Part shown: positions 31,324 through 42,183 of the stretch, one piece after another | How the letters are laid out: every line of letters starts with the position of its first letter | How positions within the stretch are numbered: position 1 is the stretch's first letter | Assembly (NCBI GenBank): GCA_964631755.1 | Contig: CAZVYI010000004.1 | Coordinates: 1-48,446 of the forward strand | From: an uncultured Sphingobacterium sp. | GTDB lineage: Bacteria > Bacteroidota > Bacteroidia > Chitinophagales > Chitinophagaceae | Direction of reading: 5' to 3' | DNA: 48,446 nucleotides | Notes under the pieces: generated by a model | Seen by the model: only the letters and a program-made list of their open reading frames with translations | Databases searched by the model: none | What the model was told of the DNA's origin: nothing | Made by a program: the position numbers and the translations under genes

Positions 31324-32406
31324 CTACTTTGATAATAATGCAGCTAATCGAGTTTGTAAATCTTCCCCACGAAGGTTTTTAGCTATGATTATACCATTTG
31401 GATCTATCAGGAAGTTTTGAGGAATACTTTGAATTTTATATTGAACAGCAACAGCATTGTTCCAAAACTTTAAATCACTCACTTGCGCCCAGGTTAGATT
31501 ATCATCTTTAATGGCTTTCAACCAAGGTTCTTTTGCCCTGTCCAGCGATACACCAAAAACAGTAAAGTTCTTATCCTTAAACTTGTTATAAGCATTTACA
31601 ACATTAGGATTTTCCTGTCGGCAAGGACCACACCAGCTTGCCCAAAAATCAACTAAAACATATTTACCACGAAAAGATGACAACTTCAGATCCTTCCCAT
31701 TTTGATCCTGTTGAACAAAATCTGGTGCTTCAGTTCCAATTGCTGCAAACTTTGCATCTTCAACAAGCTTCAAAGCGGTCTTTCCAAAATAATTGGCTTT
31801 TGCCTGATCGGTCATTTTTGATAAACGTTGTTCCATCACAGCAGGATCATCATTCAATTGCATCATCACCAGCAATACAAAAGGAGCAACTGGAGAGTTT
31901 GAATGACTTGAAATAAACTCATCAGTCTTCAAATTAACATCTGCTACTACCTCGTTATATGCTTTACGAATCGAGCCATCAGTATCCTTATCACCACCAT
32001 TTAGTTTTTGCGCAAAAGCTGAAAGCTTTGCAAAAAGAGGATTAAAGGTTGCGTTGAAGGCTACGAAATCATCATGTGATTTAGATCCTGATACTTTTGC
32101 ATTTTGAATTGTTTGTAAATCACCTTCAATTGTAATAGCAGAAGCATCTAAAAAAATCATCAATTTTTGTTGAGATCCTTTTACTGTAAGTTGATACAAA
32201 CCTGGTTCAGCTATTTCCCCTTTGGTTTCAAATTTATCACCGACAGAAATAAAGGTGGCCAATGGTTCTGGATTGACTTCATCATTCTTTAATACCATCT
32301 CCGACTTATCCTTCAATCCTTTGAGACTACCCTTCAAACTAAAATTTTGTACTTGTGAAAAGGCCAAAACCGGAAGGGCAAACAATAGTCCAATTAAATA
32401 TTTCAT
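31324..32406 (-). CDS. TlpA/ResA-like thiol-disulfide oxidoreductase with DUF4369-like N-terminal domain
   Basis: Signal peptide; DFWASWCGPC and cis-Pro loop SIP; ATGA overlap with hisIE. Confidence 0.88.
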   Translation of the reverse strand: MKYLIGLLFALPVLAFSQVQNFSLKGSLKGLKDKSEMVLKNDEVNPEPLATFISVGDKFETKGEIAEPGLYQLTVKGSQQKLMIFLDASAITIEGDLQTIQNAKVSGSKSHDDFVAFNATFNPLFAKLSAFAQKLNGGDKDTDGSIRKAYNEVVADVNLKTDEFISSHSNSPVAPFVLLVMMQLNDDPAVMEQRLSKMTDQAKANYFGKTALKLVEDAKFAAIGTEAPDFVQQDQNGKDLKLSSFRGKYVLVDFWASWCGPCRQENPNVVNAYNKFKDKNFTVFGVSLDRAKEPWLKAIKDDNLTWAQVSDLKFWNNAVAVQYKIQSIPQNFLIDPNGIIIAKNLRGEDLQTRLAALLSK

Positions 32407-32999
32407 TTTTGATGTCTTTGTTTTAAAATCGCAATAACCTCTTCTAAAGTATAGCCTTTACTGTTAAGTAAAAGCAAATAATGAAAAAGAAGGTCAGCTG
32501 CTTCGTTTAAAAATTTATCCTTGTCGTTGTCTTTAGCTTCAATAATTAATTCAACTGCCTCTTCCCCAACTTTTTGCGCTATTTTATTGATTCCCTTATC
32601 AAATAAAGATCTTACATATGAATTGCCCTCCTGAAGGGATTTTCTCGTTTCTATGATTCGTTCTAAATAGTTGAGGAAATTTTCACTTTGATTGACCTCG
32701 TTCCAACATGTATCCGAACCTGTATGACAAACAGGTCCAACAGGATTTACTTTGAACAAAATAGTGTCACTATCACAATCCACTGAATATGACACAAGAT
32801 TCAAAAAGTTCCCACTCTCCTCTCCTTTGGTCCACAACCTTGATTTAGACCTGCTGTAAAAAGTCACTTTTCCTGTTTCCAGGGTTTGATCAAAGGCCAT
32901 TTGATTCATGTACCCTAACATCAATACTTTCTGCGTCAAGTGATCTTGAATAATAGCCGGAACTAGTCCATCTGCAAACTTATCAAATGCAATTTTCAT
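32403..32999 (-). CDS. hisIE: Bifunctional phosphoribosyl-AMP cyclohydrolase / phosphoribosyl-ATP pyrophosphatase
   Basis: LWTKGEESG, DCDSD, CHTG..C, KVGEEAVE and EAADL motifs. Start placed at ATG 32999. Confidence 0.95.
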   Translation of the reverse strand: MKIAFDKFADGLVPAIIQDHLTQKVLMLGYMNQMAFDQTLETGKVTFYSRSKSRLWTKGEESGNFLNLVSYSVDCDSDTILFKVNPVGPVCHTGSDTCWNEVNQSENFLNYLERIIETRKSLQEGNSYVRSLFDKGINKIAQKVGEEAVELIIEAKDNDKDKFLNEAADLLFHYLLLLNSKGYTLEEVIAILKQRHQK

Positions 33000-33019: not shown

Positions 33020-33772
33020 CTAACGGACAGGAATATGCTGGCTGCGTAAATAGGCCTTTAATTCCGGTATTTTGATCTCTCCAAAATGAAAAACACTGGC
33101 CGCAAGCGCTGCATCTGCACACCCATTTAAAACATCATAAAAATGCACTGGCAAGCCACCACCACCAGAGGCAATAACTGGAACAGAAACTGCATTCGTA
33201 ATTTGTTTTGTTATTCCTAATGCAAAACCTTCTTTTGTACCATCATTATCCATTGAAGTAAGTAGAATTTCACCTGCTCCTCTTTTAACAACTTCTGTTG
33301 ACCAATCAATTGCTTTTGTAACTGTGGCCGTTCTACCACCATTCAAATAAACATACCATTGTCCATCTTCATGTTGCTTTATATCAATTGCAACAACTAT
33401 ACATTGGCTACCAAATTCAGCAGCCAATTGATCAACCAGCTGAGGATTTTTAAAGGCTGCTGTATTGATTGATATTTTATCAGCTCCACAATCCAGTAAA
33501 TGCCTTACATCTTCAACAGAAGAAATACCCCCTCCCACAGTAAAGGGAATATTGATTTCATGAGCTACTTTTTCTACTAATGCAGTTAGTGTTTTACGTT
33601 TTTCATTGGTTGCTGTAATATCCAAAAACACCAATTCATCAGCACCTTGTTGAGCATACAATGATGCTAATGCAACAGGATCACCAGCATCACGCAGATC
33701 TACAAAATTTGTGCCTTTTACAGTTCTCCCATCTTTAATATCCAAACAAGGTATTATTCTTTTTGCCAACAT
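33020..33772 (-). CDS. hisF: Imidazole glycerol phosphate synthase cyclase subunit
   Basis: [29 protein letters not shown] and TSMD.DGT motifs. Confidence 0.97.
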
Positions 33773-33783
33773 AATTGTAGTTG

Positions 33784-34503
33784 TTATTGGACAAACCTTA
33801 CAAGGTCTTGTAAAGCTATTTTCCCTTCATAAATTGCTTTTCCCACTATTGCACCTGAACATCCAATCTCCTTTAACTCCTTTAAATCTGTTAAAGACGA
33901 AACTCCACCACTGGCAACTAAATTGATGTCAGGAAAAGATTCAATCATTTGTTTGTACAATGCTGTAGCAGGTCCCATGAGTTGACCATCTTTACTAATA
34001 TCGGTACAAAAAAAATGATTGACTCCCAAATTCATGTATTGCTCTATGAATTCGGATAAATCTATATCTGTACGTTCCAACCAACCAGCAGTCATGATTT
34101 TTTGATCTCGCACATCTGCTCCCAGAAAGAACTTCTCAGCTCCAAATATTTCTAACCAACTTTTAAATTCATTAGGCTGCTTGGCAGCAATACTGCCAAC
34201 AGTTACATATGATACGCCAAGGTCAAGAATTCGTTGTACTTCAGCAATGGTCTTTACGCCTCCCCCAAAATCAATGGATAGATTAGTTTCTGATGCAATT
34301 TCCTCAACGATTTTCCAATTTTTAACACTTCCAGATTTTGCACCATCTAAATCAACCAGATGAACTCTTTTAAAACCGAGCTCTTCATATTGTTTGGCCA
34401 TTTCGAGTGGACTAAATGCATATTCAGTTTTACTGGAATAATCCCCTTCAGTAAGACGAACACATTTCCCTTCAATTATATCGATTGCTGGAATGATTTC
34501 CAT
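33784..34503 (-). CDS. hisA: ProFAR isomerase
   Basis: [31 protein letters not shown] and GKAIYEG motifs. Confidence 0.96.
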
Positions 34504-34505
34504 TA

Positions 34506-35099
34506 TCAAGTTAATTTTAAAAAATTTTCTAAAATTCTCATGCCGACCTCCGCACTTTTTTCAGGATGAAATTGAACACCATAATATTGATTCCGCTGAA
34601 GTGCTGAACTATATTCTCCACAATAGGATGTAACAGCTACTGTATGTTCACCCTTATCAGCATAATAGCCATGAACAAAATAACAATAAGCTCCAGATTG
34701 AATTCCATCAAACAAAGAAGAATTTAAGTCGGTTATGTTATTCCAACCCATTTGAGGGATTTTTTCATTAGCTGCTGTAGGATTAAACCGCCTAACCCTT
34801 TCTTTAAAAATTCCTAAACAATTTGTGTTATTCTCTTCACTGTAAGCACACATCAATTGCATTCCCAGGCAAATTCCTAAAACAGGTTGTTTACAAGAAA
34901 GCAGTACCTTATCCAAATTTCTATCTCTGAGATATGCCATAGCAGAACTTGCTTCGCCAACGCCTGGAAAAATTATTCTGTCGGCCGACAACAATGCAGC
35001 ATGATCATCTGTAAGAACAGCATCGATACCAATACGTTCGAGTGCAATTTGAACAGATCGCACATTTCCAGCATTGTACTTTAAAATAGCAACATTCAT
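34506..35099 (-). CDS. hisH: Imidazole glycerol phosphate synthase glutaminase subunit
   Basis: PGVG, GICLGMQ, P.MGWN, YFVH and QFHPEKS motifs. Confidence 0.95.
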   Translation of the reverse strand: MNVAILKYNAGNVRSVQIALERIGIDAVLTDDHAALLSADRIIFPGVGEASSAMAYLRDRNLDKVLLSCKQPVLGICLGMQLMCAYSEENNTNCLGIFKERVRRFNPTAANEKIPQMGWNNITDLNSSLFDGIQSGAYCYFVHGYYADKGEHTVAVTSYCGEYSSALQRNQYYGVQFHPEKSAEVGMRILENFLKLT

Positions 35100-35104
35100 A
35101 GACT

Positions 35105-35875
35105 TCAATTAAGCACGGATTTTACAAAATTTGAAGCAGTAACTCCTGCATCTTCAGACCCTGCTAATGATTTTATAAATGCAGAACCAATAATGGCGCC
35201 ATTGGCATGGGGACTAACAGTTTCAAAAGTTTGTTTATCGTTTATACCAAAACCTACCAAAATTGGATTTTTCAAATTATACGACTTTATCCTGTTCAAA
35301 TATTTAATCACCTGGTCAAAATCTTTTTCTTTTCCAGTTGTTGATGAAGAAGAAACGGCATATAGGAAACCACTTGAGAGATTATCCAATTGTTTTACAC
35401 GTGACTCAGGTGTTTCTGGTGTAACTAAAAAAATAAAATCAAGATCATATTTTTTTAAAATTTCTCCATACTTATTTTCAAATTCATATACAGGCAAATC
35501 AGGAAGAATTAATCCATCAATTCCAATTGCTGCAGCATTTTGACAAAAACGCTCAAATCCATATTGTAAGACAGGATTCATATAGCCCATCAATACTACT
35601 GGTATATGAATTGATTTTCTAAATTCCGATAATTGATGAAATAAATAATCAATTGACATTCCATTATTTAAAGCTACCCCACTGCTTTCTTGTATAACAG
35701 GTCCATCTGCCAAAGGATCGCTATAAGGCATGCCAATTTCAATTAGATCTGCACCTCCACTTTGAATACCTTCCATTATAGGAATCGTACTATCTCGCTT
35801 AGGGTATCCTGCAGTGAAATAAACATTCAATACTCCTGAAGTTTTACCAGCAAACAACTGTTCTATTCTTTTCAT
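35105..35875 (-). CDS. trpA: Tryptophan synthase alpha subunit
   Basis: TAGYP, EIGMPYSDPLADGPVIQ, PDLP, VGFGI and IGSA motifs. Confidence 0.96.
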   Translation of the reverse strand: MKRIEQLFAGKTSGVLNVYFTAGYPKRDSTIPIMEGIQSGGADLIEIGMPYSDPLADGPVIQESSGVALNNGMSIDYLFHQLSEFRKSIHIPVVLMGYMNPVLQYGFERFCQNAAAIGIDGLILPDLPVYEFENKYGEILKKYDLDFIFLVTPETPESRVKQLDNLSSGFLYAVSSSSTTGKEKDFDQVIKYLNRIKSYNLKNPILVGFGINDKQTFETVSPHANGAIIGSAFIKSLAGSEDAGVTASNFVKSVLN

Positions 35876-35884
35876 ATTAGCACA

Positions 35885-37075
35885 TTAAATACTATCCATG
35901 ACTTTCATATAAGTTCCAAGATCTTTATCTCCACGCCCACTTAGACAAATCACATTAATATCATCTTTATTAAATTTCATATGATGCAATACTGCAAATG
36001 CATGTGCAGTTTCTAAAGCTGGAATTATACCTTCAATTTTAGAAAGTTCAAATGCAGCATCAAGTGCTTCGTCATCGGTGGCGCTTAAAAAGCGCCCACG
36101 CCCTGAACTATATAAATGCGCATGCATCGGACCAATGCCTGGATAATCTAACCCTGCAGAGATACTATGAGGTTCAACCACTTGTCCATCTGAAGTTTGC
36201 ATGACAATACTCTTGCTACCATGCAAAACACCTGTTAAACCCAGTTGAGTAGTAGCAGCACTCATTCCACTGTTAACGCCATGACCAGCAGCCTCAACTG
36301 CAACAATCTCTACATCTGGTTCATTCAAAAAATGAAAATAGGCTCCTGCAGCATTGCTTCCACCACCTACGCATGCTATGACTCGAGTAGGAAGTTCTAC
36401 CCCTTCCTTTTCAAACAATTGAACTTTAATTTCCTGACTGATGACCGACTGAAATCTCGCAACCATATCTGGATATGGATGTGGACCAACTACAGAGCCA
36501 ATGATATAATGTGTATCAGAAGGATTATTGATCCAATCTCGTATTGCTTCATTGGTAGCATCTTTAAGTGTTTTACTACCGCTTGTAGCAGGTACAACTT
36601 TTGCTCCTAACATTTTCATCCTCGCCACATTTGGAGCCTGTCTTTCAATATCCTTCTCTCCCATGTACACTATACACTCTAACCCCTTCAAGGCACAAAC
36701 AGTTGCTGTTGCTACTCCATGTTGACCAGCACCTGTTTCAGCAATAATTCGTTTTTTCCCTAATCGAATAGCCAACAGGATTTGACCAATTGTATTGTTG
36801 ATTTTATGCGCACCAGTATGACAAAGATCTTCACGCTTCAAATATATTTTTGTATTGAACTTTTTACTGAGACGCTCGGCGTAGAAGAGTGGAGTTGGTC
36901 TTCCTACATAATCCGACAACAATTGCTGGAACTCATCCTGAAAAGCAGGATCATGAAAAATCTCTAAATATGCACTTTTTAATTGTTCTACGTTTTGGTA
37001 GAGCATTTCAGGAATATATGCACCCCCAAAATCACCATAATAACCCTCTAGACTAGGTGTGGCAAAATTTTTCAT
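35885..37075 (-). CDS. trpB: Tryptophan synthase beta subunit
   Basis: KREDL.HTGAHKINN, AETGAGQHG, GGGSNA, SAGLDYPG and LSGRGDKD motifs. Confidence 0.98.
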   Translation of the reverse strand: MKNFATPSLEGYYGDFGGAYIPEMLYQNVEQLKSAYLEIFHDPAFQDEFQQLLSDYVGRPTPLFYAERLSKKFNTKIYLKREDLCHTGAHKINNTIGQILLAIRLGKKRIIAETGAGQHGVATATVCALKGLECIVYMGEKDIERQAPNVARMKMLGAKVVPATSGSKTLKDATNEAIRDWINNPSDTHYIIGSVVGPHPYPDMVARFQSVISQEIKVQLFEKEGVELPTRVIACVGGGSNAAGAYFHFLNEPDVEIVAVEAAGHGVNSGMSAATTQLGLTGVLHGSKSIVMQTSDGQVVEPHSISAGLDYPGIGPMHAHLYSSGRGRFLSATDDEALDAAFELSKIEGIIPALETAHAFAVLHHMKFNKDDINVICLSGRGDKDLGTYMKVMDSI

Positions 37076-37716
37076 CGCATCATTGATTTAATTAAACTAC
37101 CATGGAAACTCTTAACCAAATTCATATCTTTCTTTCCTGGCTCTAACTCAAACTTACTGTTTACGTCCACTGCAAAACAATTCTTGTTAAATGCCGCAAA
37201 AGAAAAAATTGAGGAGATGTCATTTGGACCAATACCTCCACTTAAAAAAAAGGGTTTTGAAATATTTGCTGAAACAACTACATCCCAATTAAATTGATTA
37301 CCCGTACCCCCATATTGTTTCCCCATTGCATCAAACAAAAAGTAATCTACAGCATTCTGATAAGGTATGATCTTATAAGATAGCGACTCCTGATCACTCA
37401 CCCGAAATGCTTTAATTGTCTTCACATGGTTAGAGATTTTTTCACAAAAAACCGGAGACTCCTCACCATGCAACTGCACCATATCCAATCCCCACTCATC
37501 AACTATTTGAATAATTTGCTCTTCACCAGCATTTACAAATACCCCAATCTTATGAATCGACAAACCAGCTTTTTTAACTTGATCACTCGTCATTAAATGA
37601 GACCCAACAAACCTTGGTGATTTTTCATAAAATATAAATCCTGCATAATCAACTCCAATCTCTTGAAGCTCTTTTAATTGTTCAGCACTTGTTATCCCAC
37701 AAACTTTGACTTTCAT
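37072..37716 (-). CDS. trpF: Phosphoribosylanthranilate isomerase
   Basis: KVCGIT, GF.FY..SPR, GVFVN, QLHGEE, GGTG and DVNS.FE motifs. Start placed at ATG 37716. Confidence 0.94.
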   Translation of the reverse strand: MKVKVCGITSAEQLKELQEIGVDYAGFIFYEKSPRFVGSHLMTSDQVKKAGLSIHKIGVFVNAGEEQIIQIVDEWGLDMVQLHGEESPVFCEKISNHVKTIKAFRVSDQESLSYKIIPYQNAVDYFLFDAMGKQYGGTGNQFNWDVVVSANISKPFFLSGGIGPNDISSIFSFAAFNKNCFAVDVNSKFELEPGKKDMNLVKSFHGSLIKSMMR

Positions 37717-37720
37717 TGAT

Positions 37721-38500
37721 TTAAATTTGTTGAATAAGTTTTTCCAATGCAACTCCTGGTTGATGGGTTTTCATAAAGTACTCTCCTATCAAAAAGACTT
37801 CAAATCCATTAGATTTAAATAACCTAATTTGTTCAGGATCGTTGATACCACTTTCAGCAACTTTACAGAATGAATCTGGGATTGCGGCAGCCATTTTTAA
37901 GCTTCTCGCTATATCAACATCAAAGGTTTTGAGACTTCGATTGTTGATGCCAACAAAATCAACAGTGCTGCAAATATGCCCAATCTCTTCCTCATCATGT
38001 AATTCAAGCAAAACTTCTAAGCCAAGCGACTTCGCCAATTTAGAAAATAATTTTACTTCCTCAACTGAAAGGCATGCTGCAATAAGCAAAATAAGATCAG
38101 CACCCAAGGCTTTTGCTTCGTGGACTTGATATTCATCAATAATAAAATCCTTTCTTAGAATAGGAATTGATAAATGGGCTCTTGCATCAGTTAAATCCTG
38201 ATCAGAACCTCCGAAAAATTCATGATCAGTGAGAATAGAAACTGCAGCAGCACCGGATTTTTGATAGGACGTTGTTACTTGAACAACATCTGCCTGTTCA
38301 AATATATTTCCTTTTGAAGGAGACTTCCTTTTGAATTCTGCTATAATAGCAGCAGCATTTGAAGATCTTACTTTCGTTAACAAAGAAAATGTTGAACGGC
38401 AATAATCAGATCTCTGCATTAGATTCTCTAATGGATTCTTTTCTTTTTGTTGAGCAATCCATTCTCGCTTCCTTAGAACTATTTTTTCAAGGATATTCAT
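37721..38500 (-). CDS. trpC: Indole-3-glycerol-phosphate synthase
   Basis: IIAEFKRKSPSKG, SILTD, LRKDF, GINNR and ESGI motifs. Confidence 0.96.
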   Translation of the reverse strand: MNILEKIVLRKREWIAQQKEKNPLENLMQRSDYCRSTFSLLTKVRSSNAAAIIAEFKRKSPSKGNIFEQADVVQVTTSYQKSGAAAVSILTDHEFFGGSDQDLTDARAHLSIPILRKDFIIDEYQVHEAKALGADLILLIAACLSVEEVKLFSKLAKSLGLEVLLELHDEEEIGHICSTVDFVGINNRSLKTFDVDIARSLKMAAAIPDSFCKVAESGINDPEQIRLFKSNGFEVFLIGEYFMKTHQPGVALEKLIQQI

Positions 38501-39498
38501 CACTTTGTTTGTAGAGAGATTAATTTATTTAATACACTAAGTGCCTTACCGCTTTTCAAACTTTCCTTTGCTGCGTCAAACGCAGAAGAGTAATCGCTAT
38601 ATCCATCAGTTAACAACAAAGCTAACGCTGAATTTGCAAGAACAACATTTTGTTGAGCAGTTGTGCCTTCCCCTCTTAAAATACGCATGAAAAGTTCTGC
38701 TGAAGACTGAACAGTATCCCCACCATATATTTCAGCCTGTGTAATATAGTTTCCTCCCAACTGCAGTGGAGACAGCATTGATTCACCATCACGTGTAATC
38801 AGTTTAACATCCGAAGTAAGGGATACTTCATCATATCCATCCATGGAATGCACGATGGCATATTTCCTGTTTTCCTGCTGAAGCAGATAATTATAAAATC
38901 TGGAAACTTCAAGATTATACACTCCCACCAATTGATAAGAAGGATCAGAAGGATTAACCATAGGTCCAAGCAAATTGAAGAAAGTACGAATACCTAAATT
39001 CTTACGAATAGGCGCTACTGTCTTCAATGCTGGGTGAAATACAGGTGCATGCAGAAAACACATATTGGTTTCATCCAATTCCAGTTTTAATTGATTGGCA
39101 TCTGACTTAAATTGATAACCTAGCGATTCCATGAGGTTAGAGGCCCCACTGACAGAACTTGCTCCATAACTTCCGTGTTTGGCAACAGGCTGACCAGCGC
39201 CTGCAACAATAAAGCAGGATAAGGTAGAAATATTAAAAGTGTTTTTACCATCACCTCCAGTACCAACAATATCCATCACCTTACGCTCTTCAAAATCAAT
39301 TTTTACACACATTTCAAGTAGTGCCTCACGAAACCCAATCAACTCATCCATTGTAATTGTTCTCATCAAATAAACAGTCATGAAGGCGCTTAATTCATGA
39401 TCATTGTATATCCCTTTGCCAATATCCAGTAAAACCTGCTTAGCTATAGATTTAGATAAAGACTGATGCTCAAACAAGAAATTCAAAATCTGTTTCAT
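38500..39498 (-). CDS. trpD: Anthranilate phosphoribosyltransferase
   Basis: DIVGTGGDG..TFNIST, KHG, RT.FNLLGP and DGYDE motifs. Confidence 0.96.
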   Translation of the reverse strand: MKQILNFLFEHQSLSKSIAKQVLLDIGKGIYNDHELSAFMTVYLMRTITMDELIGFREALLEMCVKIDFEERKVMDIVGTGGDGKNTFNISTLSCFIVAGAGQPVAKHGSYGASSVSGASNLMESLGYQFKSDANQLKLELDETNMCFLHAPVFHPALKTVAPIRKNLGIRTFFNLLGPMVNPSDPSYQLVGVYNLEVSRFYNYLLQQENRKYAIVHSMDGYDEVSLTSDVKLITRDGESMLSPLQLGGNYITQAEIYGGDTVQSSAELFMRILRGEGTTAQQNVVLANSALALLLTDGYSDYSSAFDAAKESLKSGKALSVLNKLISLQTK

Positions 39499-39517: not shown

Positions 39518-40108
39518 TCACTTTCCCAACCAATTCTCCATCATTTTTCTCCCCAAGGGCGTCAATACACTTTCAGGATGAAATTGTACGCCTTGTACAT
39601 CATACTGTCGGTGTCTTAATGCCATTATTAAATTAGATTCATCAACAGCAGTCACCTCGATTTCTGCTGGAACAGACTTTTCGTTCAGTACCCAGCTATG
39701 GTATCGACCAACCTCAATTTCATGATCTAAGTTTTTAAACCAATCGTTTTGAAAATGTGAAGGTGCAACAGATGGCACCAGTTTTATTTGGTTGCTTACA
39801 CCATGATAAACACGACTAAGATTAATTAGTTCAGCCCCAAAAACCTCACCAATTGCTTGATGCCCCAAACAGACGCCAAAAATTGACTTTGTTGAAGCAT
39901 AGTGCTTAATTAGAGGCAATAAAATTCCTGCTTCGCTCGGTATTCCTGGTCCGGGCGACAAGATGATTTTATCAAAAGCTGCAACCTGTTCAAGACTGAT
40001 TTCATCATTTCTGCACACATCTACAGTTCTATTACTAATTTCTTCTACCATTTGAACAAGGTTGTAGGTAAAAGAATCATAGTTATCAAGTATCAATATT
40101 TTATTCAC
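39518..40108 (-). CDS. trpG: Anthranilate synthase component II
   Basis: DNYDSFTYNL, SPGPG, GVCLGHQ, RYHS and QFHPES motifs. GTG start. Confidence 0.95.
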   Translation of the reverse strand: MNKILILDNYDSFTYNLVQMVEEISNRTVDVCRNDEISLEQVAAFDKIILSPGPGIPSEAGILLPLIKHYASTKSIFGVCLGHQAIGEVFGAELINLSRVYHGVSNQIKLVPSVAPSHFQNDWFKNLDHEIEVGRYHSWVLNEKSVPAEIEVTAVDESNLIMALRHRQYDVQGVQFHPESVLTPLGRKMMENWLGK

Positions 40109-40118
40109 GTAAATGATT

Positions 40119-41573
40119 TTATTTTCTATTCAATACTGTAGCATAAGCCACTGCCTTTTTCAATGCCCCAAGCTTATTGTTAACTTCCTGTAATTCAAGC
40201 TCAGGAACACTTGAAGCAACTATACCAGCACCCGCCTGGTAAAACAATGTATTTCCTTTACTTAAAAAACTTCTGATCATAATCGCTTGATTGGAGTTCC
40301 CATCAAAACCAATATATCCAATTGCTCCGCCATAAAAGGATCTTGCGGTTTTTTCATATGTTTCAATCAGTTGCATGGCTTTGTACTTTGGAGCACCGCT
40401 TAATGTTCCAGCTGGAAATGTTTTCGCCATCAACAAAAAGGGATTGGCATTTTCTTCTACTTCGCCAGTAACTTCACTTACGAGGTGTATTACATGAGAA
40501 AAGTACTTTACTTTTCTATATTGAGTTACACCAACATTTTTACATACCCTACTCAAATCATTTCTAGCTAAATCAACAAGCATTACGTGTTCTGCATTTT
40601 CTTTTGGATCAAGCAATAACCGTTCGGCTTCGAGAGCATCTGTAACATCATCTCCTGTCCTTTTAAATGTACCTGCAATAGGATGTACAATAGCTTTCCC
40701 GTTGGAAACAATCAGCTGACTTTCTGGTGAGGAGCCCATTAATTTATATTCGCCATAATCAAAATAGAACAAATAAGGAGAAGGGTTAACCATTCTAAGT
40801 GCCCTGTAAACATTGAATTCATCCCCTTTGAATTTTTGCTCGAATCTCCTGCTCAATACAATTTGAAAAACATCTCCCCTAAAACAATGGGAAATCCCTT
40901 TTCCTACCATAGACAGGTATTCCTCATCAATTAAATTAGATTTTTCATCTCCATCCAATTCAAACGGAAACTGAGGTAAATCTCGACTATATATTAAATT
41001 TTCTACAATTTGCTTATTCCCTTCAATTCCATCAACATGATTTTCAATCAAGAACAACTCATCTCTAAAATGATCAATTGCAATTACATATTGATACAGA
41101 CGATACCTCATTAAAGGAATAGCCTGAGATGAGCTCTCGAAATAATTCTTTTTATCAGATACTTTACTATAGGGTTTTAGAGAAAAAGGAATTGTTTCAA
41201 AAAAAGGAATTGCATCATATGCAGTATAACCAAAAAGTCTTTGTGCAAACTTCATCTGCTGATCTGCTTCCTCAACTTCAAATGCCTGCATATATTCCCA
41301 TAGCAAAGTGGAGACTACATGTTCTGACAGAGATTCACGAACAGGCAATTTTCCTGGCAATTTATATTCAACATAATTTTGATCAAGAATTTCAACACCA
41401 CCGATTGCATTGATAGCAATAAATGAAAAGCTGTTTTCAGCCGTATGATGATCTGTACTTTCCAGCAAGATGGTATCCCGGAATTTATCTCTCAACCTCA
41501 AATAGATACCTACAGGGGTGTACAGATCTGAAGACATTTTCTTAACTGTTGTACTGAGTTTAATTTTCTCCAT
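40119..41573 (-). CDS. trpE: Anthranilate synthase component I
   Basis: LLES, GDVFQIVLS, NPSPY, SSPE, PIAGT, EHVMLVDLARND and FPAGTLSGAPK motifs. Start is ATG 41573 (MEKIKL); the ORF-track extension to 41672 runs through the attenuator. Confidence 0.95.
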   Translation of the reverse strand: MEKIKLSTTVKKMSSDLYTPVGIYLRLRDKFRDTILLESTDHHTAENSFSFIAINAIGGVEILDQNYVEYKLPGKLPVRESLSEHVVSTLLWEYMQAFEVEEADQQMKFAQRLFGYTAYDAIPFFETIPFSLKPYSKVSDKKNYFESSSQAIPLMRYRLYQYVIAIDHFRDELFLIENHVDGIEGNKQIVENLIYSRDLPQFPFELDGDEKSNLIDEEYLSMVGKGISHCFRGDVFQIVLSRRFEQKFKGDEFNVYRALRMVNPSPYLFYFDYGEYKLMGSSPESQLIVSNGKAIVHPIAGTFKRTGDDVTDALEAERLLLDPKENAEHVMLVDLARNDLSRVCKNVGVTQYRKVKYFSHVIHLVSEVTGEVEENANPFLLMAKTFPAGTLSGAPKYKAMQLIETYEKTARSFYGGAIGYIGFDGNSNQAIMIRSFLSKGNTLFYQAGAGIVASSVPELELQEVNNKLGALKKAVAYATVLNRK

Positions 41574-41588
41574 AATCACTATCAGTTT

Positions 41589-41618
41589 AAAAAAAAAGCC
41601 CCGAATATTCGGGGCTTT
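41589..41618 (-). terminator. Attenuator terminator upstream of trpE
   Basis: Perfect inverted repeat AAAGCCCCGAAT/ATTCGGGGCTTT (41595-41618) running into a U9 tract (A 41589-41597), 15 nt before the trpE ATG. Confidence 0.92.
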
Positions 41619-41644
41619 AACTATGCTGACAAACAACAAGGTAG

Positions 41645-41698
41645 CTACCCCAGCGAAGGGATAACATGCCAACCGTTATTTGTATAATTTCTGCTCAT
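41645..41698 (-). CDS. trpL: Leader peptide of the trp-his operon, MSRNYTNNGWHVIPSLG
   Basis: ATG 41698 to TAG 41645; Trp codon 41669-41671 and His codon 41666-41668. Overlaps mutually exclusive hairpins leading to the terminator. Confidence 0.8.
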   Translation of the reverse strand: MSRNYTNNGWHVIPSLG

Positions 41699-41703
41699 TT
41701 GAT

Positions 41704-41735
41704 CAAAATTCAAATATTCTTTCAACAATACCAAA
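41704..41735 (-). promoter_or_regulatory. Putative trp-his operon promoter
   Basis: TTTG (41732-41735)-N20-GAATTTTG (41704-41711), one mismatch to TAnnTTTG and 5 nt upstream of the leader ATG. Confidence 0.55.
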
Positions 41736-41748
41736 AATAATTTTAAGC

Positions 41749-42183
41749 CTATTTAAGATATCGCTTTATCTCGCGATCAGACTCTCTTTGCTTAATTGTT
41801 TCACGTTTATCATGCAATTTTTTACCCCTGCCCAGACCAATTTGAATTTTTGCATAACCACGTTCATTGAAATAGATTTTTAATGGAATAATTGTAAACC
41901 CTTTATCCTTTAACTTTTGTATAAGCCTGTTTAATTCCTTTTTTTTCAACAAAAGTTTTCTATCTCTTGTTGGCACATGATTGGCGTAGCTACCAAAAGA
42001 ATAATGTGAGATATGCAGTCCTTTGATGTATAGCTCACCATGATCCAATAAACAATAACTATCATTGAAGCTGGCACTTCCCGAGCGCAATGCTTTTACC
42101 TCTGTACCAGTCAAAACCATACCTGCATCGAACTTTTCTTCGATAAAATACTCGAACGTAGCAGATTTGTTTCTAATCTCCAT
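41749..42183 (-). CDS. smpB: SsrA-binding protein
   Basis: N..A.FEY, AGMVLTGTEVKALR, RDRKLLL.K.E and GKKLHDKRE motifs. Confidence 0.97.
   Translation of the reverse strand: MEIRNKSATFEYFIEEKFDAGMVLTGTEVKALRSGSASFNDSYCLLDHGELYIKGLHISHYSFGSYANHVPTRDRKLLLKKKELNRLIQKLKDKGFTIIPLKIYFNERGYAKIQIGLGRGKKLHDKRETIKQRESDREIKRYLK

Follow-up and report, generated by a model that had tools for sequence, protein, structure and literature searches.

A candidate dual Trp/His attenuator at the head of a trp-his operon in the Chitinophagaceae

In the genome of an uncultured Sphingobacterium sp., a short leader ORF whose only Trp codon is followed directly by its only His codon precedes an operon with genes of both the Trp and the His pathway. 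This raises the question of whether one attenuator could respond to the supply of two amino acids from two unrelated pathways. We examined this question in the window (the whole stretch of 48,446 nt that was analysed) and in the corresponding loci of relatives.

Operon, leader ORF and promoter

The leader heads a run of minus-strand genes in the order trpEGDCFBA-hisHAF(IE)-tlpA with short junctions, and the closest named TrpE records are those of Chitinophagaceae. Profile matches identified trpG (39518..40108), trpD (38500..39498), trpC (37721..38503), trpB (35885..37075), trpA (35105..35875), hisA (33784..34503), hisF (33020..33772) and hisIE (32403..32999). The best family for trpE (40119..41573) was TIGR00564, with a score under its curated cut-off, and the match of trpF (37072..37716) also lay under the curated cut-off. 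The ATG of hisH (34506..35099) lies 5 nt past the trpA stop, a gap which suggests that the two genes would be co-transcribed. The last gene of the run (31324..32406) was assigned as a TlpA/ResA-like thiol-disulfide oxidoreductase from a weak match under the cut-off and from its position in relatives. The preliminary description of this DNA had the operon encoding both pathways, and all of the trp genes were indeed found, whereas the his set is limited to hisH, hisA, hisF and hisIE.

A hisG-D-C-B operon is located on another contig (G000:C24:15549-20024, plus strand) behind its own His-run leader and terminator. Its hisG and hisD were identified by Pfam, and the other two genes, which we take to be hisC and hisB, were named from motifs and gene order. 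Thus, the His pathway is split into one operon under a His leader and one under the trp leader. A separate His leader was also present at all 30 hisG loci checked in relatives (L022 and L023 among the loci noted). In genomes where no his gene follows the trp genes (hereafter unlinked) or where only hisH does, 53 of which were searched, the coordinates place hisF some 6 kb behind hisG in 31, so that hisF would there be under the His leader. At 24 of 46 unlinked loci a TlpA-like redoxin gene stands directly after trpA, as if hisHAF(IE) had moved out. In many relatives (L104-L203), insertions of unrelated genes separate trpF, trpB and trpA or interrupt the his genes.

The leader ORF, MSRNYTNNGWHVIPSLG, occupies 41645..41698 on the minus strand and comprises 17 codons from the ATG at 41698 to the TAG at 41645; it is kept in relatives and contains codons for the end products of the operon. 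As previously described, its sole Trp codon, UGG (Trp10, 41669..41671), is immediately followed by its sole His codon, CAU (His11, 41666..41668). We predict Trp10, which is the same in 30 of 30 distinct leaders, as a control codon and His11, unpaired in the predicted fold, as a second one. Among the 14,710 short ORFs of this genome, 137 (0.9%) contain the W-H dicodon, so that the dicodon alone is weak proof, and it is position and conservation that carry the case.

A predicted sigma-A promoter of the Bacteroidota type, matching the consensus given in PMC7366714, was found ahead of the ORF on the minus strand, with a -33 element TTTG at 41732..41735 and a -7 box GAATTTTG (consensus TAnnTTTG) at 41704..41711, ending 5 nt before the leader ATG. 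Of 221 trp leaders examined, 168 have a box of this type whose end lies 4-8 nt ahead of the leader start, against 2.5% of shuffles, and the -33 TTG was mostly positioned 19-20 nt upstream. The same motif ends 4 nt before the his leader of the window's genome. Given a box position of -12..-5 (PMC9723704), the leader AUG should lie at about +2, and with a box so near the leader start both the trp and the his leader mRNAs are predicted to be near-leaderless. Upstream on the same strand lies smpB (41749..42183, profile match), and we found no terminator-like site on the minus strand between smpB and the leader (41699-41748), which means that a topoisomerase-accD-smpB transcript arriving from upstream may likewise end at the terminator of the attenuator (the genes ahead of smpB are named from motifs).

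Predicted folding of the leader RNA

The fold of the leader region was better than that of 200 of 200 shuffles (z -4.1), and the three structures previously drawn by hand all reappeared in the calculated folds. The 1:2 hairpin, in which GUUAUCCC (41665-41658) pairs with GGGGUAGC (41651-41644) at -10.6 kcal/mol, is the inner helix of a longer anti-antiterminator stem spanning 41683-41629 (-21.8 kcal/mol) on the minus strand, a stem indicated by both fold and covariation. The predicted antiterminator (41610..41653, minus strand) pairs UGGGGU (41652-41647) with GCCCCG (41615-41610), so that the GGGG at the end of the ORF pairs with the CCCC arm of the terminator. In the form first proposed it reached -8.9 kcal/mol alone and -14.9 kcal/mol with an inner hairpin, and the best antiterminator fold (-15.8 kcal/mol) shares the same GGGG/CCCC core. 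The intrinsic terminator (41589..41618, minus strand) consists of a hairpin at 41618-41595 followed by U9, has a predicted energy of -16.9 kcal/mol, and ends 15 nt before trpE. By sequence and fold, an intrinsic terminator is thus placed between the leader and the first gene, and the predicted 1:2, 2:3 and 3:4 structures are mutually exclusive.

In the terminated fold (1:2 and 3:4), two-sided changes were observed in 9 of 25 pairs, which is above shuffles, with the scored structures drawn from the window's own fold, a choice that favours them over slid controls. No covariation was found for the antiterminator (2:3), whose core is invariant and hence uninformative, and RNAalifold on 25 leaders recovered the terminator only. 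Overall, the region very likely acts as a classical ribosome-mediated attenuator.

In the mechanism that we propose, the transcript would begin 0-2 nt ahead of the leader AUG. When a ribosome reaches S15-G17, it would cover the GGGG strand and the terminator would form at about 41590, while a ribosome held at W10 or H11 would cover segment 1, leaving GGGG free for the CCCC arm and allowing RNA polymerase to read on. The folding under ribosome masking that had been suggested was carried out with a crude model, in which 12 nt were masked from the A-site codon and the nascent RNA was folded. Both codons gave the antiterminator, with probabilities of 0.92 at W10 and 0.91 at H11 (0.91 also at V12), against 0.13 at P14 and 0.01-0.06 at S15-G17. 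Masks of 9 or 15 nt shifted the profile by one codon, and with all three masks the control codons of this crude model are placed where a stall frees segment 2. The model also returned high values at R3-N4, G9 and V12 and a value of 0.53 for the stop codon, and unlinked leaders gave the same profile; with high values at other codons too, the model shows only that the geometry permits both codons to act.

The His codon in relatives

The consensus leader of the Chitinophagaceae is M..N.WWWH(T/S)N, with three Trp codons in most members, whereas the window's clade, which has smpB upstream, has a single Trp codon. Given that the relatives carry WWWH, it appears that two Trp codons disappeared from this clade while His stayed. 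Within the clade, W-H was found in 30 of 30 distinct leaders (CAT in 25, CAC in 5), counts that leave out 11 further clade loci, while the residue after W-H takes nine identities. One locus of this clade was re-read on the opposite strand and likewise showed W-H. Among 34 clade genomes searched, 11 have hisF on the same contig and strand, about 8 kb downstream; in the others hisF either fell on a different contig, the assembly being fragmented, or escaped detection.

When all relatives were compared, the Trp run was followed directly by His in 97 of 98 his-linked loci, the exception being WWWQH, as against 27 of 42 unlinked loci, where the 27 include L154, possibly a broken contig, and 9 of 45 unlinked outgroup loci. 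These linkage classes were hand-curated for about 20 loci, and the counts were made after dropping 11 loci in which no leader could be identified, 6 duplicates, loci whose upstream DNA was insufficient, and 26 loci that could not be assigned to a class because of their short contigs (20 in-family, of which 17 have His, and 6 outgroup). Of the five hisH-only loci, one has His after the Trp run and the other four (L074, L184, L185 and L186) have HWWWQ. All loci that carry at least one his gene downstream have a His beside the Trp run (103 of 103). An additional His ahead of the run was present in 27 of these 103 loci against 1 of the 42 unlinked ones. The preliminary description had regarded a His codon that varies among relatives with the same operon as evidence against its proposal, and the codon proved to be conserved. 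Of the pattern it had expected across Chitinophagaceae, conservation of W-H and its association with his linkage were borne out, but the contrast of WH in linked with WW in unlinked loci was not, as the relatives have WWWH. We also observed a locus of another family (L267, G347:C4) in which trpA is followed by two genes, presumably DAHP-synthase-like and phenylalanine-hydroxylase-like judging from motifs, and then by hisHAF(IE); its leader is WWWH, as are those of two unlinked genomes of the same family. Trp runs broken by Cys or Arg codons (WCW, WRW) were noted at L055, L063, L096, L279 and L282-L284.

We then analyzed loss of the His codon along a FastTree phylogeny of one gene (TrpE) with 145 loci, from which 4 unlinked loci with divergent TrpE, none of them with His, were left out. 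The fitted loss rate was 0.045 in linked and 2.19 in unlinked lineages (LR 26.8), that is, loss is about 50-fold lower while the locus is his-linked. The four neighbouring residues gave loss-rate ratios of 1.2-3.0 (LR 0.15-5.3), 16 single nucleotide positions gave LR values of 0-9.3, and 12 label shuffles gave at most 1.9. The LR was 16.7 for CAY versus CAR and 0.9 for CAT versus CAC. Parsimony placed 8 synonymous changes and 1 His loss on linked branches against 1-2 synonymous changes and 11 His losses on unlinked branches (Fisher p 0.0015); unlinked lineages change the codon to Gln, Leu, Pro or Tyr, while linked ones change it synonymously. An independent-pairs test, which had only 6 well-supported pairs, too few to reach significance, gave 2.1 in the same direction and 0.0 in the opposite one (median p 0.5). 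The tree tests and the clade comparisons both tie selection on the second codon to the genes of the second pathway.

Here, we need to consider that this codon is also part of an RNA structure. Across the family, CAY sits in the 1:2 helix with mean pairing of 0.87, 0.70 and 0.92 at its three positions, CAC mostly faces G, and the outgroup codons at the His place begin with C in 38 of 45 cases, which indicates that structure shapes this position. Structure thus favours CAN here and probably accounts for how the codon arose. A His to Gln change has the same predicted folding cost as a synonymous change (median about 1.6 kcal/mol), and the His to Gln cost was no different for 90 linked leaders than for 27 unlinked ones (p 0.65). 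Because the costs are equal in both groups, structure fails to explain the difference between them. In the single-Trp clade the His codon is mostly unpaired (mean pairing 0.55, 0.26 and 0.41), and the predicted cost of a change to Gln is below 0.5 kcal/mol in 24 of 30 leaders.

Alternative readings and known leaders

Based on these observations, we suggest that the leader is probably a dual attenuator, in which shortage of charged tRNA-Trp or of charged tRNA-His would open the operon. The strongest competitor, which we consider unlikely, is an ordinary Bacteroidota attenuator reading Trp only, in which the His codon is kept by 1:2 pairing and descent and hisHAF(IE) depend on basal read-through or an internal promoter. 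It draws on the pairing of the codon in most family members, on the dominance of C-initial codons in the outgroups, where His occurs in 9 of 45 loci without linkage, and on the 27 of 42 unlinked genomes that keep His, but it leaves unexplained the roughly 50-fold difference in loss rate, the restriction to synonymous change while linked, and the fact that the mostly unpaired codon of the single-Trp clade does not vary. The internal promoter that it could call on was sought before hisH, and a promoter-like motif turned up at 17 of 96 linked loci, within trpA at 16 of these. This motif tracks a coding motif of TrpA, with similar use of TTT for Phe in unlinked loci, and in the window its spacer is 16 nt; we therefore regard it as a doubtful promoter.

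A correlation with linkage would also be expected if selection acted on the His codon not as a sensor of His supply but as a fixed tuner, in which slow decoding or an effect of the peptide would increase basal read-through for the his genes, and theory holds that a single codon should sense weakly (PMC1183508). We regard this as improbable, because CAT and CAC are both accepted, extra His codons gather beside the Trp run in linked loci, and the position of His can move by one codon (WWWQH) or to the opposite side of the run (HWWWQ), as expected if His supply is read. Least probable of all, in our judgement very much so, is that there is no attenuation and the hairpin is the constitutive terminator of the smpB transcript with an incidental short ORF. 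The position of the smpB end, 50 nt upstream on this strand and not separated from the leader by any terminator-like site, the single Trp codon, and the lack of an Rfam family at cut-off are all compatible with such a terminator. Against it, the ORF, its start and W-H are conserved, the leader is continuous with WWWH leaders in genomes that lack smpB upstream, 168 of 221 leaders have a promoter motif ahead of their start, and the 15 nt left before trpE give no room for a separate promoter.

Multivalent leaders are known from thrL (Thr/Ile) and ilvGMEDA (Ile/Leu/Val), where the codons match the operon products. As in the window, one leader carries codons for more than one amino acid; those leaders, however, use codon runs and serve branches of one pathway, whereas the window has one codon each for two separate pathways. 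The trpL and hisL leaders of E. coli and Salmonella, as described in PMC1183508 and PMC9413887, resemble the window in having a leader ORF, the 1:2, 2:3 and 3:4 logic and a terminator before the first gene, but each of them reads one amino acid. Background on attenuation is given in PMC9413887 and PMC4833913, and according to the theory in PMC1183508 few regulatory codons result in low sensitivity. The trp, his, ilv and phe leaders of Flavobacterium psychrophilum are each single-pathway as annotated in PMC9723704.

No Rfam family reached its cut-off for the leader. The RF00513 Trp_leader model gave 23.6 bits on the window, under its cut-off of 41, and no T-box riboswitch was among the 32 matches at E<=10. 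The RF01692 Bacteroid-trp model (cut-off 49 bits) had no match to the window at E<=10 and exceeded its cut-off in 0 of 5 genomes and at 0 of 20 loci. The Bacteroid-trp ORF has two or more Trp codons, in agreement with the supplementary alignment; two Trp codons were found neither in the window nor in any of the 30 clade leaders (30/30), while the location upstream of trp genes in Bacteroidota is shared. As far as described by Weinberg et al. 2010 (PMC2864571), Bacteroid-trp also shares the short ORF with an Asn-rich start, the Trp codons, the terminator and the position upstream of trpE, and a note in its alignment file names a His codon CAY. The window differs in its one Trp codon, in the his genes downstream and in the absence of a covariance-model match.

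The gene order, too, has precedent. Del Duca et al. 2021 (PMC8305728) described trp genes that interrupt the his operon in Thermoflavifilum thermophilum and Filimonas lacunae and proposed a single transcription unit. This is the same trp-his linkage as in the window, where, in contrast, hisGDCB has moved away and smpB is upstream; the word 'leader' does not appear in the main text of that article, whose authors note a lack of expression data. Their nested order, with hisB within 900 nt upstream, was found in 27 of 97 linked loci. Both the gene order and Bacteroidota trp leaders are thus already published, and in the open-access PMC and bioRxiv literature we found no description of a Trp+His leader.

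With regard to history, trp genes would have come between hisB and hisH, placing hisHAF(IE) behind a Trp attenuator; the CAY codon, first favoured by RNA pairing, would later have been selected as a His sensor; and the loss of two of three Trp codons in the window's clade would have produced a 1:1 Trp:His sensor. On balance we lean towards a minimal OR-gate, with one Trp and one His codon on a near-leaderless mRNA serving two unrelated pathways, in which a structural codon was turned into a sensor by operon rearrangement and which decays whenever the his genes leave. If this is true, a regulatory RNA would have gained a second input after gene shuffling by one codon changing its job, a change that could be traced through many independent gains and losses of linkage. 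It would then be testable whether one codon per amino acid suffices for useful attenuation and how attenuation works on the near-leaderless mRNAs of Bacteroidota, and the leader would represent a naturally occurring sensor with two amino-acid inputs in about 110 nt.
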